64,000 nucleotides of DNA, taken from IMG/VR virus record IMGVR_UViG_3300024313_000004, positions 1 to 64,000 of that record. One strand, written 5' to 3'. Under the pieces are notes generated by a model. The model was not told the DNA's origin and ran no database searches. It worked only from the letters and a program-made list of their open reading frames with translations. The translations under genes were made by a program, and so were the position numbers. This DNA comes from a virus. Positions 26,353 through 62,904 of the stretch are shown in pieces. Position 1 is the first letter of the stretch. The number at the start of each line of letters is the position of its first letter.

Positions 26353-26688
26353 TTATAGATTTATTTTAAGAATTTTATATGGGTATTTTCTTTTTATATA
26401 AAATTGCTCACGTTCTTTATAGTGTTTATATAAGGTATTATTCATATCATTTGGATCAAAAATATCTACCAAGTCAAATATATTTACTTTATCTTTATCG
26501 GAGTGTAATCTCAAACCACGTCCTATTGATTGTATAATAATTTGTTCGGATTTAAAAGAATCTGCAAATATAATATTGAATATGGCATTTATAGATACAC
26601 CTGTCGATAATGTCCCATATGAAGCTACTAAAACTTTAGTAGTTCCTTCTTCTCTAATTTCTTTTCTTTTATCTACTATTCTAGCCAT
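26353..26688 (-). CDS. uvsW: UvsW-like SF2 helicase, C-terminal fragment (motifs V-VI)
   Basis: VLVASYGTLSTGVSI...QSIGRGLR...IFDLVD. Confidence 0.88.
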   Translation of the reverse strand: MARIVDKRKEIREEGTTKVLVASYGTLSTGVSINAIFNIIFADSFKSEQIIIQSIGRGLRLHSDKDKVNIFDLVDIFDPNDMNNTLYKHYKEREQFYIKRKYPYKILKINL

Positions 26689-26876
26689 TTTTTATAGTTT
26701 TTATTTTACAATTTAGTAGTATTAAATTGTTTTCATTTGGATCATTCTCTGATATTCTGTTATCAGTATCTCTATATTTTCTTATAAGGTATGTACTAAT
26801 ATTCTCTTTCGGATTTTCTCATAGTTTCCATTATAATTTCATCACCGTTAGGTTCTAAATCTATTACTTTCCACAT
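26681..26876 (-). pseudogene. 3' remnant of an endonuclease-like gene (frameshifted)
   Basis: MWKVIDLEPNGDEIIMETMRKSE then, in another frame, ENISTYLIRKYRDTDNRISENDPNENNLILLNCKIKTIKNG*; its TAG overlaps the uvsW-C start. Confidence 0.4.
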
Positions 26877-26885
26877 ATCTTTTAT

Positions 26886-27110
26886 TTATTTTTTATAAAT
26901 GGCTTTTATACTACCTCCTTCTAAATTAAAAACTTCTAATATTGAATATGTTGATATTACATAAGTATTTATAACACCATTAAAGGTATTTATTGTTGAT
27001 TGAGTCTCTTGAACTCCTTCAATTGATATGAATAACATATCATTTTCTTCTAATAAAGTACCTACATTACCAAGTACTTCTAATTCGGTTCTAACTGTTT
27101 CTATATTCAT
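26886..27110 (-). CDS. Small tail-fibre-associated protein, paralogue of 62686..62904
   Basis: INTYVISTYS...LEGGSIKAIYKK vs LESYIITKYP...LVDGIYKAQYDK. Confidence 0.7.
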   Translation of the reverse strand: MNIETVRTELEVLGNVGTLLEENDMLFISIEGVQETQSTINTFNGVINTYVISTYSILEVFNLEGGSIKAIYKK

Positions 27111-27111
27111 A

Positions 27112-27744
27112 TTATTCGTAATTTAATTTCATTATCGGTCTTCCTGTATCCAATGAGCAACCACCACTTGGATAAGTCGTATCAGTTCTTTTATATGCAA
27201 CTGATCCCGTTTTGTTTTCAATATCAAATCTTGGTCCACCAAAGTCATAACTACCATCTCTATTTTCCCACCAAATAACTATATTATCTGTTCCATTCCA
27301 AGTAAAATTAGTTCCGAAACTATAGTCTATCCAAGTATTTAATTCAGCACTTGTGTATGTTTTAGAAAATGAGAATTTAACATTTGTTGTATCTGTTAAA
27401 GTTTCTGAACTCATATCTACTGTTGGTAAAGCACCAGTCCAATTTGCTTTAGAACCGATATGTGCCATATAAATACGATTAGTAAACATTGTAAAAGATG
27501 GATCTGACATATCACCAAAATAAAGTTCTAATGATGTGAAATCAACTGACCCACCAATTGATGATAATTCAGATGCTTCAATTATCCACGCAGAAAATGA
27601 ATAGTCATACGCAAATGCAAATGGTGCTAATCCTAATGAACCACCACCTGGTGTTCCTGGTGTCCCTAATTGTATTGTTCCTGGTGGAATCGGACCACCA
27701 CTTAGTAATTGTCCGATCATTCCTGGTAATATACTATTCATCAT
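27112..27744 (-). CDS. Putative tail-tip/adhesin beta-sandwich protein, paralogue of 62059..62669
   Basis: MMNSILPGMIGQL...YDYS...SEL...FTWNGTDNIVIWWENRDGS...YP. Confidence 0.7.
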   Translation of the reverse strand: MMNSILPGMIGQLLSGGPIPPGTIQLGTPGTPGGGSLGLAPFAFAYDYSFSAWIIEASELSSIGGSVDFTSLELYFGDMSDPSFTMFTNRIYMAHIGSKANWTGALPTVDMSSETLTDTTNVKFSFSKTYTSAELNTWIDYSFGTNFTWNGTDNIVIWWENRDGSYDFGGPRFDIENKTGSVAYKRTDTTYPSGGCSLDTGRPIMKLNYE

Positions 27745-28020
27745 TATGCGAAAACTATTTTTTTAACGGGAAAGTACCATTGACTTCGGATATATTTTTC
27801 CAAAAAAATATTAGCTCTTCTTCTTTGTTCTTCTGATGATATTGTCTTCATGTTATTATACTTTTTCTTTCTACATTTTTCGTATTTATCCTTATCATTT
27901 TTAAGATTTATCCAACCTTTCTTAGCGGCATTTGATACTTCCTCGGAGTTTTTATAATAACTCATCATCCAATTTAAAGGTCTTTGATATGCTCTAATAT
28001 TTATAGATAAATTCTCTCAT
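27744..28020 (-). pseudogene. Chimeric remnant: decayed basic (endonuclease-like) gene fused to the last ~20 codons of a tail-fibre gene
   Basis: ATG at 28020 after TAATATATA is out of frame with ENLSINIRAYQRPLNWMMSYY...; C-terminus WYFPVKKIVFA matches fibre end [12 protein letters not shown] (62062). Confidence 0.55.
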
Positions 28021-28058
28021 AATTTATATATTAAATTTACACTTACTCTGTTGTAAAG

Positions 28059-29528
28059 TCATTTATATTTTTTTATAAAGTCATCATCGATATCGTCATC
28101 AGGTGTTATATCACAAGCTTTCTTATATGTACCGTCTGATAATAATATTTCAAAGTTAGATTTAAACTCAATTTCATAGTCACCAAAATTAAGTATAGTA
28201 TATTCAACCTTCTCTTTGGTTATTTCCATCTGTTTCTTTATTTCTTCCCTTTTTCTACCCTTTACTTCACCATCTATATAAAAGAATTCTTTATCTGGTA
28301 TTTCATTTTTAAGTTTATCAAAAATTCTTTGACCATTTTCTATTGTGTGAAAAAGTAATAAGGTATTATTTGTACACTTCTGTACAATGTTTCTTATAAA
28401 ATCTAACCTCTTATCCGATTGGTGTATAAATCTTTTCTCAAAATCGAATGCTGCTTTACCATCTCCACTTTTTCTAACAAGTTTTAATCTATCGTTAAAT
28501 TCACTGTGGTTATGATTCATTAAAACAACTCTAATATCCATCGGAGTAATTATACCCTTTTTCTTTAACTCATCTGCACTCACTTCTGTTATTTTTGGAC
28601 CTAAAACAGATTGTATTGTTAGTATTTCACAAGTATCTTCTAATGGAAATGTACCAGAAACACCAAATCTACAGTAAGCATTCCCAAAAGTATATTCTAA
28701 TATTTTAGTAATAGTTTTTGCTTTTGCACCATGTGCCTCATCTGTCGCGATTGTGTGAAATTGCTCGAAGAAATCTTTAGGCCATTTTTCGAGTGATTGA
28801 TATGTACCAATATAGATATTTGGATTTTCGGTACCTGAGAACTTTCTAGGTCTATCTGACATTACTTCTTCGACTCTTGTTATACAAGGTATGTGACCTG
28901 ATGATAATTCTGTTGTATTTTTTTCTTTCATTTCTAAAAGATTATTTATACCATAATTATATTCTATAATATTATCATAGAATTGTGTTACAAGTGTTAT
29001 AGATGGAACAATGATAAGTATCTTAGCATCTGGTTCTATATTTAGAAATGTATAGAACATTACTATGGATATAATAAGTGATTTACCACCTGATGTTGCA
29101 ACTTCTGCCATACAATATCTATTCTTTAGTATTTTATATGCCGCTTCTACTTGGTGATCATATGGCATAAATGGTACCCATTCTCCTTCTTTATTTTTAA
29201 CTTTATGTGTTTTGAAAAAATCTTTACAGAAGTCTTTTACTTTCTCTAAAGTAACATCTCTGTTTATCGGGAAATCTAATTTATTTTCTAATATAAAAGG
29301 CATTTCAATTTCTTTACAACCTCTCATTGCCTCTTTCCATAGACCTAGATTTATTCTACCATTCTTAAAGAATGTAATGTTTCCATCCCATGCACCAACT
29401 TTAACTGCTGGGTGATATCTCCAACCTTTTACCTTTCGTGTAAGCCAAAGTTGCATTTGGTGATATTCGATTCTTGTTGCATCCGATACTACTATTTCTT
29501 CTGTCTCTTTATCATATCTAAATTTCAT
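28059..29528 (-). CDS. uvsW: UvsW-like SF2 helicase, N-terminal fragment (motifs I-IV) with Hint-like tail
   Basis: PYDHQ, ATSGGKS, YQSL, DEAH, SGT, FYIDGEV. Confidence 0.9.
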   Translation of the reverse strand: MKFRYDKETEEIVVSDATRIEYHQMQLWLTRKVKGWRYHPAVKVGAWDGNITFFKNGRINLGLWKEAMRGCKEIEMPFILENKLDFPINRDVTLEKVKDFCKDFFKTHKVKNKEGEWVPFMPYDHQVEAAYKILKNRYCMAEVATSGGKSLIISIVMFYTFLNIEPDAKILIIVPSITLVTQFYDNIIEYNYGINNLLEMKEKNTTELSSGHIPCITRVEEVMSDRPRKFSGTENPNIYIGTYQSLEKWPKDFFEQFHTIATDEAHGAKAKTITKILEYTFGNAYCRFGVSGTFPLEDTCEILTIQSVLGPKITEVSADELKKKGIITPMDIRVVLMNHNHSEFNDRLKLVRKSGDGKAAFDFEKRFIHQSDKRLDFIRNIVQKCTNNTLLLFHTIENGQRIFDKLKNEIPDKEFFYIDGEVKGRKREEIKKQMEITKEKVEYTILNFGDYEIEFKSNFEILLSDGTYKKACDITPDDDIDDDFIKKYK

Positions 29529-29640: not shown

Positions 29641-30033
29641 ATGAAAAAGTTAATATCATTCTTTAAAAGAATTTTTTCAAAAAAGGAAAAAATTTCAAAT
29701 GTTAAAGGAAAAGTTTCAAATGTTGTTGAAGATGTTAAAGAAATTGTAAAAGAGGTTAAAGAAATTGTAAAAGAAGAACCTACTGACCAAATTGAGAAAA
29801 GATTCGTAGAAGTTGCGGATGATAAAAAAGTAACGGCAAAGGAAATTAAAGAAAAAGTTAAAAAGCCTGCTGCTAAAAAGCCTGCGGCTAAAAAACCTGC
29901 TGCTAAAAAGCCTGCGGCTAAAAAACCTGCTGCTAAAAAGCCTGCTAAAAAGGTAGATTCTGAAACTACAGAGGTAAAAAAGAAGCCCGCAAGAAGAAAA
30001 CCAGCTACTAAGAAACCAAAAAATGATGAATAA
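29641..30033 (+). CDS. Histone H1-like basic protein (KKPAA repeats)
   Basis: (KKPAA)x5 KKPAKK; amphipathic N-terminus MKKLISFFKRIFS. Confidence 0.7.
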   Translation: MKKLISFFKRIFSKKEKISNVKGKVSNVVEDVKEIVKEVKEIVKEEPTDQIEKRFVEVADDKKVTAKEIKEKVKKPAAKKPAAKKPAAKKPAAKKPAAKKPAKKVDSETTEVKKKPARRKPATKKPKNDE

Positions 30034-31237: not shown

Positions 31238-31912
31238 TTACTTTCTTTTTTGTATGATTTCGTCAATCATTCCATATTTCTTAGCTTCCGTGGCAGTCAT
31301 CCAATAATCTCTATCACCATCTTTATGAACTTTATCATATACTTGGCCGGTAGTATCAGAGATTATTTCATAAAGTTCCTTTTTCAAAGAGTTTATTTCT
31401 TTTGATTCTATTTCTATATCAACTGCTTGTGAATACCCAAGATAACCAAGTGGTTGATGGATCATGGTCCTACTTCTTTTAAGAGCTTTTCTTTTACCTT
31501 TTGTTCCTGAACAAAGTATTACAGCAGCCATAGAAGCAGCAAGTCCTGTATTTACGGTGATGATGTCTGGCTTAACAAAATCCATAACATCTAATAACCC
31601 TAATCCAGAATAAACCGAACCTCCTCCCGAGTCGATGTATATTTTGATATCTTTGTCACTTTCCATTTCAAGATAAAGAAGTTGTGCCTTTATTATATTA
31701 CACACATAGTCATCTACGTCTGTAGATAAGAATATGATTCTATCTTCTAATAACTTAGAGAAGATGTCTACGGACATCCCATTACTTTCTAATAGATATG
31801 GAGTATTATTATTTTGAGTCCTTGATACTTTTTTAAAGTAGTCATCAAACACAGAGCTAGATATGTTATTATCTCTCATATGTGACTTCAATATTCGGGT
31901 ATTTCTATCCAT
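31238..31912 (-). CDS. clpP: ATP-dependent Clp protease proteolytic subunit
   Basis: DIFSKLLEDRIIFL, QLLYLE, YIDSGGGSV, GLAASMA (Ser), MIHQP (His), DRDYWM (Asp). Confidence 0.93.
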   Translation of the reverse strand: MDRNTRILKSHMRDNNISSSVFDDYFKKVSRTQNNNTPYLLESNGMSVDIFSKLLEDRIIFLSTDVDDYVCNIIKAQLLYLEMESDKDIKIYIDSGGGSVYSGLGLLDVMDFVKPDIITVNTGLAASMAAVILCSGTKGKRKALKRSRTMIHQPLGYLGYSQAVDIEIESKEINSLKKELYEIISDTTGQVYDKVHKDGDRDYWMTATEAKKYGMIDEIIQKRK

Positions 31913-59077: not shown

Positions 59078-62062
59078 ATGGCTCAGAATATAGGAACATT
59101 AGTAGGTTCTGCAATAAGACCGATAGATAGTACAATGCCAATTGCATCAGCATTTGCATTTGAAATAAATGGTGGACACCATCAGGTTGGTACTTTAGTT
59201 GATAGAAATAATATAATGGTTCAGAGAAGGCAATGGGGTATGTTATGTACGGTTTATAATGACTCTGTTAACAATGGAACATATCAACTTAAATATGGTT
59301 ATAGTAGTACAGATTCAATGGATAATAGTAATTGGGTTTTATTTGGTGGTGGATCTGTCGGATCTGGAGTTTCCAATTGGAATGATCCTGTTATATCAAT
59401 TTCCACGACACCACCTACATATCCAGTTGATGGTGATAGATACCTTGTTGGTAAAAGTTCGACGGCTTCTTTAAGTGGTATATTTTCTAGTTTAACTAAT
59501 ACAGGATATGTTGGGAATCTAGTTGGTGGATATATTGCTGAATATAAAGATGCACTTAGTGGTTGGGAAACAACTCTACCTACTAATGGGATGACTATAA
59601 GAGTTAATAATGATGATAATTCATTTTATAGATATGAGGGAACATATTCGACTGGTCAATGGTATAAGGAAAGAGTTAATCAAGTTAGATCATTATTTGC
59701 AACAAGTGTTAATAAAATAGATTATACGGTAAGTACTGGTGACTTCTTCACATATTCAACCGAAGTAGTTTATTTGGTACAATTTGCAACTGCTAATTCA
59801 GGTGGTACTGCGTCTATAAATATCAATAGTTTGGGTACTAAGAATATGAAAAAGCAAACATCTACTGGAATTGTTGATTTGGATGCAAATGATTTAAATA
59901 CTACAGGTTTTTATCAACTCATATATGATGGTACATATTTTCGAGTAAATATTATAGGTGGTTCTAATACCGGTTCATCGTCTTTGAAGTATAAAATTGT
60001 CGAGGATGAAAGGATTGTTGTGCCTGCAAACTCTGAATATCTTTTATATGGTGATCTTGAGGTTAATGGTGTTTTAGATATTAGTTCAACAGGAAAAGTT
60101 GTTATAATAAACGGTGCATTAAATGTTAATGGTGGTACTGTTTCTAATTCTGCGAATGTATCATTAATTACTTTACCTACTTCATTAACAAGTGGGACTT
60201 CGGGAACAAGTGGGACTTCGGGAACAAGTGGGACTTCGGGAACAAGTGGGACTTCGGGAACAAGTGGTATAGCAGGTGATAGATATTTAACATTTACAAA
60301 TTCAAATCTAACAATAACAGATGTATTTGATACGATTTTATCATTTACTATAGAAACCGGATTTGCATATTCTATAAATCAATCTATAATAGTCACTCTA
60401 TCGTTAGGAAATTATATGGAGGCTATAGTAACAAGTTATGACTCTGGAACAGGTGCAATGACCGCAAAGGTTATAAATGGATATGGTAGTGGGAGTGGTA
60501 CAGGACCTTGGATTATAAATCTTGATGGTGCATCTGGTGGAGATGGAACTTCAGGAATTGATGGAACAAGTGGAACCTCGGGAATTGACGGAACTTCTGG
60601 AACAAGTGGAACCTCAGGAATTGATGGAGCTTCTGGAACAAGTGGAACTTCAGGAATTGATGGGGCTTCTGGAACAAGTGGAACCTCAGGAATTGATGGA
60701 GCTTCCGGAACAAGTGGAACTTCAGGAATTGATGGAGCTTCCGGAACAAGTGGAACTTCAGGAATTGACGGAACTTCTGGAACAAGTGGAACTTCTGGAA
60801 CAAGTGGAACCTCAGGAATTGATGGAGCTTCTGGAACAAGTGGAACTTCAGGAATTGATGGAGCTTCCGGAACAAGTGGAACCTCAGGAATTGACGGAAC
60901 TTCTGGGACAAGTGGAACCTCAGGAATTGACGGAACTTCTGGGACAAGTGGAACCTCAGGAACTTCTGGAACAAGTGGAACCTCAGGAATTGACGGAACT
61001 TCTGGGACAAGTGGAACTTCTGGAACAAGTGGAACCTCAGGAATTGACGGAACTTCTGGAACAAGTGGAATAACTTGGAATGGTGGAACGGTATCTAACC
61101 CAGTCTTCTTCACAAACACGGTTAGTTTAAATGGGTCGGTTGTTGGTGATATAGAATACCTCACGGATTATTCATCAACTTATACAAACAGAAGTTTAGT
61201 TGATAAAGAATATGTTGATACAAATATTTTATTCGAAACTGGTGGTGGATTAAACTCAACACAAAGAAAGAGTTTTGGAAATGCATTAGGTGCAAAGTCG
61301 TTCGCGTTGGGTACTGGAAACACAGCATCTGGTGAAAACTCTTCTATTCTTGGAGGACAAAATAATATTGTTAGTGGATTAAATGGTATTATATTAGGTG
61401 GTCAAATAAATAATGTTACAAATCAAGAAGGGTCTATCATTGGTGGTAATAATAACTCAGTTACAGCAAATAGGTCATCTATTTTAGGTGGTCGTGAGAA
61501 TGAGATAACTCAATCTGATGGTGTTATAATTGGTGGTATATTTAATACTGTTAGTGGTGCTAATTCAGTTATTATTGGTGGAACTGGAAGTTTCGTCAAT
61601 GGTATCAACTCTGTAATCATTGGTGGTGTGGGACTTACAAATAGTGTAAATAATACGGTTATGGTTCCAGATTTAAATGTTCAAGGTGGGGCATATGTAA
61701 ATAATAATTTAGATGTTGATGGACAAATATCAGTAGGAACAAGTTATTCGAACGCATTCACATCCAACACATTTAACTTTGACTGTGACCAAGGGATGGT
61801 GCAACATGTAGATGCACAAGGTATGTCAGCGAATGGTACTATCACTTTTAGTAATCAAAAAGAAGGTAGTACATATACATTATTATTCGTACAAGGAAGT
61901 GGTACATATGATGTAGTTTTACCAAGTGGTTATTGGTTAAACGATACAGCACCATTTGACTTTTCAACTGAGTTAGTCGATGATGAGAGAGCAATAATTA
62001 CAGCAACCTATATATTTAATGCTTGGTACTTTGCTGTTAAAAAAGTAACTTATGTTGCATGA
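59078..62062 (+). CDS. Long tail fibre: DUF2793-like domain, collagen-like GTS repeats, beta-helix head
   Basis: [13 protein letters not shown]; (GTS/GID/GAS)n; [18 protein letters not shown]-type repeats. Confidence 0.75.
60188..60267 (+). repeat. Coding tandem repeat, 18 bp x 4.4
   Basis: acaagtgggacttcggga repeated perfectly four times (TSGTSG). Confidence 0.9.
60541..61070 (+). repeat. Coding tandem repeat of 9/27/36-bp units ([12 protein letters not shown])
   Basis: ggaacaagtggaac(c/t)tcaggaattga(t/c)gg(a/g)(g/a)cttc(t/c) units. Confidence 0.9.
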
Positions 62063-62669
62063 TAAATAGTATATTACCTGGAATTATAGGACAATTACAA
62101 TCAACACCTTGGTGTTCTCCAATAGTTGGAACAACTTGGGACACTACCGTAGGGACTTCTAATAATTCATTCTCCCTGCTTATGGTTTATATGATTACTC
62201 ACAGAGTATGATGATTTTTAAACAATCTGAAATAGGTTCTGGAGAAAAGCAAATAAATTCAATATCATTCCAACTTAGTAATTATTCAGGTGGTTATACT
62301 ATGAATACTCAAGTAATAAAATTAGCACACATAACAGATAGTCAATTCGGAACTTCTGTAAAAAGTGATTTGACAGGTATTGGTGGGTTGGCCGACTTAA
62401 CAACGGTAAAAAGTTTTAATTGGTCAACTTCAAATGGTTGGGTTACATTTACTTTTGATGATAATTTTTGCTATAATGGAGTTGACAACTTAATGGTTGT
62501 GTGGGAAAACAGAGATGGTAGTTGGGAAAGTGGCTACGGATGGGCTGAATCTCATACTACAGGAGGAGAGTTTTTATCGTGGTATGTATATCAAGATAAT
62601 ACCTACCCAACTAGTGAATTTGGTACAAGAAGTTCTGCTAGTAGAGCTAATACAAGATTAGGTTATTAA
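62059..62669 (+). pseudogene. Tail-tip/adhesin beta-sandwich gene with a 1-nt frameshift near 62173
   Basis: ATG 62059 overlaps the fibre TGA and gives [13 protein letters not shown]...SNNSFS, stopping at 62211; the homologous continuation PAYGLYDYSQSMMIF... is in the -1 frame. Confidence 0.7.
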
Positions 62670-62685
62670 AAAATAAATAGATAAA

Positions 62686-62904
62686 ATGATAGATTTAGTA
62701 GGTTTAATAAATGATTTATCGACAAACGGTGTTGTTGATTTAATAGGTGAGAATAACACACTTTCTTATATTTTAGTAATGAGTGATGTTACTGAAATAA
62801 CTGTTGTAGAAAATATATTAGAAAGTTATATAATAACAAAATATCCAAATAGAGTTACATCGACATTGGTGGATGGTATCTATAAGGCCCAATATGATAA
62901 ATAA
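62686..62904 (+). CDS. Small tail-fibre-associated protein, paralogue of 26886..27110
   Basis: Shared pattern ending (I/V)..Y.I..Y....L.GG/DG..KA.Y.K. Confidence 0.65.
   Translation: MIDLVGLINDLSTNGVVDLIGENNTLSYILVMSDVTEITVVENILESYIITKYPNRVTSTLVDGIYKAQYDK

Follow-up and report, generated by a model that had tools for sequence, protein, structure and literature searches.

A split UvsW-like phage helicase carrying a degenerate half-intein tail

INTRODUCTION

Selfish endonuclease genes often land in essential phage genes. The rescues known for such interrupted genes are RNA splicing, protein splicing and, in the one studied case of Aeh1 NrdA, unexplained protein tails. Here, we analyzed the first 64,000 nucleotides (hereafter the window) of IMG/VR virus record IMGVR_UViG_3300024313_000004, in which a gene for a UvsW-like helicase is split into two open reading frames (ORFs) by the remains of a homing-endonuclease cassette, and in which the upstream ORF ends in a 48-residue extension that we trace to a split intein.

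Three described systems are closest to this locus. The nrdA-a, mobE and nrdA-b genes of Aeh1 were reportedly presented as genes in pieces by Friedrich in 2007. In the T4 MobA element, which Bonocora is said to have described in 2011, gene 39 and gene 60 are the split parts, with C- and N-terminal extensions and a 50-nt translational bypass. To our knowledge, the T4 MobA tails have so far not been linked to inteins. For Aeh1 NrdA-a and NrdA-b, the mobE-derived tails are essential for activity; Crona et al. (2011) had no database match for the tails and only speculated on a degenerate split-intein origin (PMC3045599). The fractured genes of Dassa et al. (2009) cover eight host enzymes, with no UvsW-type helicase among them and no mention of degenerate inteins (PMC2677866). 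Our literature search found no description of dead split-intein tails on fractured genes.

RESULTS

The helicase gene of the window is split inside its second RecA domain

The window is part of a 134.6-kb IMG/VR fragment, itself estimated to represent 23% of the genome, and the phage is therefore of roughly 600 kb. Its nearest GenBank relatives are uncultured phages of 634–735 kb. The helicase is encoded in two minus-strand ORFs, one of 489 aa (the N-part, 28059–29528) and one of 111 aa (the C-part, 26353–26688), separated by 1,370 nt. The N-part holds motifs I–IV and the C-part motifs V–VI, and the break lies between motifs IV and V, within the second RecA domain. The original prediction, made from the sequence letters, had placed these two motif sets in separate ORFs about 1.37 kb apart, which the ORF list, Pfam and PHROG confirm; the N-part end and C-part start that it quoted match the ORF translations. 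Both ORFs are intact, with all motifs present.

Domain searches assigned the two ORFs to one protein. In the N-part, Pfam detected ResIII (7e-15), DEAD (4.5e-13) and UvsW_N (2.5e-4), the last of which is under the Pfam cut-off in the window and over it in relatives. In the C-part, Helicase_C and phrog_9690 (4.6e-30) were found. The single PHROG helicase profile phrog_9690 spans both ORFs, with N-part residues 237–441 matching profile positions 21–214 and C-part residues 7–111 matching positions 202–306. The ORF pair thus has the composition of a UvsW-like superfamily 2 helicase, with a UvsW N-terminal domain and two RecA-like domains bearing motifs I–VI. Annotated uvsW genes of T4-like phages are 26–31% identical to the window helicase.

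Comparison with uninterrupted genes revealed the extent of the added segments. The helicase is a single ORF of 524–546 aa, ~536 aa in close relatives, with the same neighbours, in LR745206, LR756502, LR756504 and 40 IMG/VR contigs. Residues 1–441 of the N-part (28206–29528, minus strand) form the helicase N-core, which comprises the UvsW_N-like domain, motifs I–III of RecA1 and the first part of RecA2, and is 59–89% identical to intact and split relatives. The C-core (26353–26637, minus strand, with the stop codon) holds motifs V and VI and the end of RecA2, and is 70–86% identical to relatives. N-part residues 442–489 (the tail; 28062–28205, minus strand, with its stop codon at 28059–28061) and C-part residues 1–17 (the head; 26638–26688, minus strand) have no counterpart in intact genes. 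The head supplies a new start codon and a basic segment and is 83–96% identical among split alleles. The split is not a one-off assembly error, a risk raised in the original prediction: the tail-bearing N-part occurs in 77 clusters of a 5.8-billion-protein collection and in >70 independent metagenome contigs.

Relatives carry intact, split-intein and dead-tail alleles

To survey related alleles, we searched IMG/VR with the C-part, which yielded 80 loci, and then compared them by tblastn. Intact, genuine split-intein and fractured dead-tail forms were all found, and the interruptions occupy three separate sites in the helicase. At site 1 (after motif Ia), a Vsr/DUF559-like endonuclease lies between a tail of ~40 residues and a 14-residue head (L036:3925-5370 and L061:4246-5337; also L073, L084 and L089). 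At site 2 (after the DE of motif II), the N-terminal half ends in a 100-residue N-intein with an initial Cys and TxxH, followed by a free-standing PD-(D/E)xK-like endonuclease gene and then by a 35-residue C-intein ending in Ser-Asn before Cys. These site-2 intein pieces are known to Pfam (Hint, 1.4e-8; Intein_splicing, 1e-6 and 2e-5) and occur at L015:4264-5517, L031:1607-2854, L057:4053-5302 and L069:2079-3538. Site 3 is the site of the window, whose tail, and likewise its head, is common to nine distinct IMG/VR alleles; the nine tails are 61–88% identical, with 20 of 48 positions invariant. In L057, the site-2 intein is combined with the site-3 split, and the helicase is in three pieces.

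The closest relative of the window by helicase sequence, L010 (89%), is intact, and the cassette is present in far more distant phages (59–62%), which implies either mobility of the element or its repeated loss. In a search for a co-conversion tract, the sliding identity of the window to L010, the nearest intact allele, and to split alleles changed no more than slightly around the break. In two independent secondary fusions, L027:4483-6300 (identical to L171 and L178) and protein P0064, the helicase is again a single chain of ~600 aa, in which the tail and a head-like linker are kept as an internal insertion, and the stop, endonuclease and gap (described below) are absent.

Intein ancestry of the tail

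To trace the origin of the tail, profiles of the tails were aligned by hhalign to the genuine N-inteins of sister phages. The nine site-3 tails matched six N-inteins with E 2.8e-5 (score of 30.5 vs 10.7 ± 2.4 for 200 column shuffles, z 8), and the significance rose with broader sampling, to E 5e-7 (z 10.8) with 58 tails and to E 2.2e-8 (probability 95%, z 14.9) with 40 representatives at 50% identity or less, taken from an exhaustive hidden Markov model search of 1.84 billion proteins. This last alignment is nearly gapless, covers N-intein positions 57–95 and sets KSNF of the window opposite TGNH of block B, exactly the pairing with the block B TxxH that had been proposed in the original prediction along with the Hint likeness of the N-part end, itself borne out by the sister-phage N-inteins (E 2e-8). 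The pairwise score of the tail against N-inteins was 65 vs 31.7 ± 5.1 for shuffles. The site-1 tail, another catalytically dead Hint remnant, aligns to almost the same segment (N-intein positions 56–93, E 6e-8, z 13.8), and the 14-aa site-1 head matches the C-intein start (p <= 0.006).

We further modelled the remnant alone with AlphaFold (83 residues), using an alignment of 76 tail-bearing proteins that contained no intein columns. The predicted remnant has four short strands and a helix, with a predicted local distance difference test (pLDDT) score of 77–89 over residues 11–60, and accounts for only roughly one third of a Hint domain. Foldseek with this model gave nothing at E <= 0.001 (E >= 2), yet ranks 1–11 were all inteins. 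A Foldseek-independent comparison with 48,161 PDB representatives returned only 35 chains with Z >= 2 (maximum 4.4). Inteins fill the first 11 places, and roughly two thirds of the 35 are Hint-superfamily members. The predicted remnant thus matches inteins almost exclusively, at low Z (<= 4.4). The Npu DnaE N-intein, one of the top 11, aligned to the model over its residues 47–99, and a second structure comparison had a best Z of 3.9 (root mean square deviation of 2.1 Å over 43 residues, intein residues 45–89). The structural evidence alone is weak because the Z values are low; structure comparison and sequence profiles agree on which intein segment the tail corresponds to. In the full-length AlphaFold model of the natural fusion L027 (606 residues), the remnant region had a pLDDT of 34–52.

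Together, these comparisons give good support to the view that the tail is a degenerate leftover of a split N-intein's C-terminal half. A copy of the helicase's own 3' region, left to decay after single-crossover integration, would be another source of such an extension, and MAFFT did align the tail, with a few identities, to intact helicases at their motif V region and C-terminal segment. This origin is hardly credible: in local alignment, shuffled sequences score as well as the tail does against the helicase C-region (p 0.26), whereas its score against N-inteins far exceeds theirs, and the same tail stands at other insertion sites and on another gene. The duplicate origin was therefore rejected.

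The tail and head have lost the residues for splicing

Analysis of the tail indicated that the splicing residues are gone. It is 48 residues long and lacks block A, and the first ~50 residues of an N-intein are missing. In place of the block B TxxH the window has KSNF, and these positions vary across the tail family. None of the 58 distinct tails, 77 clusters and 45 divergent representatives showed Cys/Ser at the junction, conserved TxxH or an N-intein of greater length. No C-part has a terminal His-Asn, and only 16–17 non-helicase residues precede the helicase sequence, vs 35 in genuine C-inteins. The missing N-terminal Cys/Ser block and C-terminal His-Asn had already been pointed out in the original prediction. 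Because the catalytic residues (Cys1, TxxH and the terminal His-Asn) are absent, protein splicing is excluded on sequence grounds.

Sister phages have genuine trans-splicing split inteins in this gene, and introns are common in phage replication genes; both would favor a joining of the halves, either by trans-splicing of an atypical intein or by a self-splicing intron. We consider such a joining very improbable, given the loss of position-1 Cys/Ser, the variable TxxH and the short heads without His-Asn, and given that the tail is conserved as protein and not as RNA. Rfam scans found no relevant intron in the break of the window (E <= 10) or in 12 related loci (gathering thresholds), and a group I or other intron was rejected on this basis.

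The tail is under purifying selection and is portable

The nine tail alleles have a nonsynonymous divergence (pN) of 0.20 vs a synonymous divergence (pS) of 0.68, at which synonymous sites are saturated, and a pN/pS of about 0.3; omega for pairs with the window is 0.05–0.2. The tail is thus under strong purifying selection. It is retained in alleles without an endonuclease and in the secondary fusions L027 and P0064. Among 45 divergent representatives, which include very divergent UvsW-like helicase N-fragments, the match is always C-terminal.

The tail module also ends P0132 and P0144, helicase fragments cut at a different site, and P0130, a radical-SAM-like fragment with a CxxxCxxC motif. 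The same tail at other sites and in another gene is therefore a portable part of a mobile element and not a part of the host gene. Among the IMG/VR relatives of two very divergent tail-bearing helicases (P0116 and P0128), none has the tail.

Relatives carry a stop-containing gap and a hairpin in the C-part

Of 52 split or fused alleles, 44 have a C-part whose coding sequence is broken immediately behind codon 24, invariably Tyr. The gaps comprise 24 distinct sequences of 4–21 nt, in all three length classes modulo 3; a stop codon opens 22 of the 24, and all end in a triplet that differs from a Tyr codon at no more than one position. Purifying selection persists in the 87 codons downstream of the gap (pN/pS 0.21). 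A hairpin of 11–13 bp with compensatory changes ends at the Tyr codon. Its folding energy ranges from −15.5 to −24.5 kcal/mol where a gap is present and from −3.8 to −11.1 kcal/mol in the eight gap-less alleles, with no overlap (p 8e-6). Examples of gap loci are L059:6001-6090, L057:6001-6100, L087:2486-2570 and L230:4180-4270. A single +1 slip fails to decode all gap variants, and a short peptidyl-tRNA(Tyr) hop can decode them. The gap and hairpin of these relatives suggest that ribosomes make a short hop there, associated with the HNH cassette.

The window itself has no bypass gap of the gene 60 type, and its C-part is a continuous 111-codon ORF. A degraded counterpart of the hairpin lies at 26617–26664 (minus strand), with an energy of −8.5 kcal/mol, no gap and a continuous frame. 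The relatives form a decay series, from alleles with the endonuclease and the gap, through alleles that have lost the endonuclease and kept the gap and alleles that have lost the gap and kept the split and tails, to secondary fusion. This series matches that described for the T4 MobA element (bioRxiv 10.1101/2022.08.31.505936).

The break holds a dead endonuclease gene and fibre-associated cargo

A full 325-aa HNH endonuclease gene lies between the helicase halves in L049, L058 and many metagenome loci. Such full-length genes hit the HNH endonuclease family phrog_12434 (1e-17) and are 25–45% identical to T-even mobile endonucleases. The window has the arrangement of the fractured genes of Dassa et al., two same-strand halves around the place of a free-standing homing endonuclease gene, of which it keeps two remnants. 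The middle remnant of the Mob-type HNH endonuclease (27804–28007, minus strand) corresponds to residues 88–155 of 325 (tblastn with L049 and L058: 62–74%, E 5e-23 and 3e-27). The 3' remnant (26684–26870, minus strand) corresponds to residues 267–325 and is broken by a frameshift, matching in two frames (tblastn: 45–68%, E 2e-9 to 4e-11). The HNH catalytic part is deleted. With its HNH domain deleted, its 3' end frameshifted and its length interrupted by a 1-kb fibre accessory cassette, the endonuclease gene of the window is decayed and dead. The original prediction had overlooked this content of the break.

The inserted cassette consists of paralogues of the genes that follow the window's own 994-aa collagen-like fibre gene (59078–62904 with that cassette). 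A 74-aa chimeric ORF (27744–27968, minus strand) joins the endonuclease middle to the last ~20 tail-fibre codons (27750–27809), with 80% DNA identity over 75 nt to 62024–62098, the end of the fibre gene. It is accompanied by a 210-aa fibre-associated cargo gene (27112–27744, minus strand), which has no Pfam or PHROG family and no assigned fold, and whose paralogue at 62175–62615 (plus strand) is 36% identical. We found 22 homologues of this cargo gene, and in L090–L092 the homologue (69–92% identical) directly follows a fibre gene. A second cargo gene of 74 aa (26886–27110, minus strand) is the partner of the 210-aa gene; its homologues follow the 210-aa gene in L090–L092 (66–71%) and lie at 62686–62904 in the window. 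A scan of the break for sigma-70 promoters and terminators gave results no better than shuffles.

At the fibre locus, the 994-aa fibre-like protein (59078–62062, plus strand) has long Gly-Thr-Ser and Gly-Ile-Asp-Gly triplet repeats of collagen-like character, and it is the last ~20 codons of this gene that recur within the helicase break. The resident paralogue of the 210-aa gene (62059–62669, plus strand) is broken into ORFs of 50 aa and 153 aa in different frames. The copy in the helicase break is intact and 92% identical to the L090 copy that follows a fibre gene.

A decaying endonuclease between the halves and a foreign cassette in the break could also mean that the helicase itself is a pseudogene, its ORFs being decaying leftovers, perhaps backed by a helicase in the unsequenced part of a genome of which only about 23% is available. 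This appears improbable. Both ORFs are intact with all motifs, the split form is found in at least 77 clusters and in more than 50 examined alleles without disabling mutations, and the tail and the C-part have a pN/pS of about 0.2–0.3 at saturated synonymous divergence. There is no second helicase copy in the 134.6-kb record.

The two chains probably assemble with the help of the tail

The charges of the tail and head are opposite. The net charge is −7 for the tail and +3 for the first 12 head residues, parallel to the C-half of a genuine N-intein (−4 to −8) and the start of a C-intein (+2 to +4). In real split inteins, an anionic disordered part of the N-fragment and a cationic C-fragment begin assembly by electrostatic capture (PMC11766414). 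The tail and head of the window share the features of the Aeh1 extensions in being absent from intact homologues, supplied by the element and opposite in charge.

We propose that a mobile element entered the RecA2 portion of a UvsW-like helicase gene, at a point between motifs IV and V, and brought a 48-residue C-terminal extension with a stop, a Mob-type HNH gene, and a fresh start codon that opens a short, basic N-terminal extension. The 48-residue extension stems from a split N-intein, of which it represents the C-terminal half, and, having no splicing residues, leaves the two polypeptides unligated. The two-chain helicase is most likely still active, with motifs I–IV contributed by the N-part and motifs V–VI by the C-part. 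The acidic, beta-rich tail may help the halves to assemble or stabilize the cut RecA2, a role that would reuse the segment with which a split intein ordinarily draws in its other half through charge. The original prediction had suggested that a non-splicing Hint remnant may hold the helicase parts together as a non-covalent clasp, which would be a reasonable role for the tail. In the window, the element is at a late stage of decay, with a dead endonuclease gene, a 1-kb fibre accessory cassette inserted into it, and the gap and hairpin lost. A helicase split by a homing-endonuclease cassette, active as two chains and aided in assembly by its half-intein tail is, in our view, the probable explanation of the locus.

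Several observations weigh against this proposal. The resemblance of the head to the first C-intein strand, a further claim of the original prediction, was not borne out, since the head scores no better against C-inteins than shuffled sequence (p 0.17–0.9). In fused-form models, the head region is low in confidence, helical or coiled, with no predicted strand pairing with the tail. A strict tail–head clasp is therefore unsupported. The poor coverage of the head in the remnant model arises because MAFFT misplaced the short heads in the remnant alignment. In relatives, the extreme conservation of the head may stem from the hairpin and gap, and not from a role in binding protein. As for the tail, a Pfam scan at E <= 10 gave no Hint match and a PDB sequence search with the nine-sequence tail profile gave no intein match; the same searches with genuine N-inteins, as a control, find Hint families and DnaB inteins. 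The Hint link depends on one genuine-intein family and on a low structural Z (maximum 4.4). The Aeh1 tails are unneeded for the binding of the halves and are needed only for higher assembly (PMC3045599). Finally, with only 23% of the genome in hand, an intact second helicase could lie elsewhere.

Some of these points would fit a tail that is Hint-derived and selected without forming a clasp with the head, and that caps or stabilizes RecA2, makes a higher-order contact like that in Aeh1 NrdA or serves the element; the head would then only provide the start codon and, in relatives, part of the recoding signal. The lack of significant C-intein similarity in the head, its uncertain models and the dispensability of the Aeh1 tails for heterodimer formation agree with this alternative, as does the head coding sequence, which forms the gap-linked hairpin in 44 relatives and has a pS of 0.47 vs 0.77 downstream. 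Set against it are the opposite charges that mirror real split-intein halves, the retention of the head in gap-less and fused alleles, and the head of the site-1 remnant, which is significantly C-intein-like. We regard this alternative as rather unlikely.

Neighbouring genes

Upstream of the helicase and divergent from it, a 130-aa ORF at 29641–30033 (plus strand) is rich in Lys, Ala and Pro, with KKPAA repeats. It has a weak match to the histone-H1-like HC2, and LR745206 and LR756502 have similar Lys-rich ORFs at the same position. A 224-aa ORF at 31238–31912 (minus strand) resembles, by eye only, a ClpP-type serine protease subunit, and a homologue lies near the helicase in LR756502 (L002:2317-3039).

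DISCUSSION

Tails supplied by a mobile element are known on split genes; new here is that the tails proposed to rescue a split gene have a traceable intein origin. The sister phages of the window present three states of the helicase gene, intact, interrupted by a working split intein, and ending in a selected dead half-intein, and these states suggest that a splicing element is reducible to a docking or stabilizing piece. The speculation of 2011 on the origin of such tails thereby becomes a testable hypothesis. The tail and head may also represent a natural compact peptide pair for non-covalent protein assembly. Helicase halves of this kind should escape pseudogene calls in annotation pipelines, and the gap and hairpin variants of the relatives would add a new and very short natural translational bypass.

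A broader interpretation is conceivable, for which we would put the chances slightly short of even. The tail may belong to a large portable family of splicing-dead half-Hint modules borne by HNH cassettes, with the host protein working as two chains, and this may be a stable end state of split-intein evolution. If true, it would give direct sequence evidence for the idea put forward in 2011 for the Aeh1 tails. In most relatives, the cassette would also make ribosomes skip the 4–21-nt gap with its stop codon, aided by a 13-bp hairpin, and such cassettes could form a second independent family of T4-MobA-like elements that unite a split gene, tails and a bypass.

Comparison of the window with Aeh1 revealed the same basic situation, in which a Mob-type HNH endonuclease divides an essential gene of DNA metabolism within a domain and neither RNA nor protein splicing takes place. 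Unlike the short tails of Aeh1, the tail of the window is 48 residues long, has demonstrable homology and, as modelled, weak fold similarity to the C-terminal half of an N-intein, and belongs to a large portable family. Function is proven for Aeh1, whereas we infer it for the window, and the charges are reversed, with an acidic tail and a basic head in the window.

The order of parts resembles the fractured genes of Dassa et al. (2009), which consist of an N-half with an intein piece, an endonuclease gene, and an intein piece with a C-half, found in genes for phage replication and repair. Canonical members of that group include sister alleles of the window helicase, with the insertion after the DE of motif II. 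Unlike these, the window lacks block A and its Cys1, TxxH, and the last two thirds of the C-intein, where the His-Asn lies. Its endonuclease is of the HNH (Mob-like) type, whereas canonical loci carry Vsr or PD-(D/E)xK-like enzymes.

The T4 MobA element shares with this locus an HNH endonuclease, a split host gene and conserved tails and, in relatives of the window, a coding gap that contains a stop and lies close to where the downstream half begins. The two elements sit in different host genes, and their cassettes have no sequence relationship. In the relatives, the gaps measure 4–21 nt, vs 50 nt in T4, and follow a Tyr codon, with the hairpin upstream of the take-off codon; the window is gap-less. 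The state of the window thus corresponds to the stage of a MobA-like element at which the endonuclease and gap are lost and the split and tails are kept, and L027 and P0064 correspond to the subsequent stage of secondary fusion.

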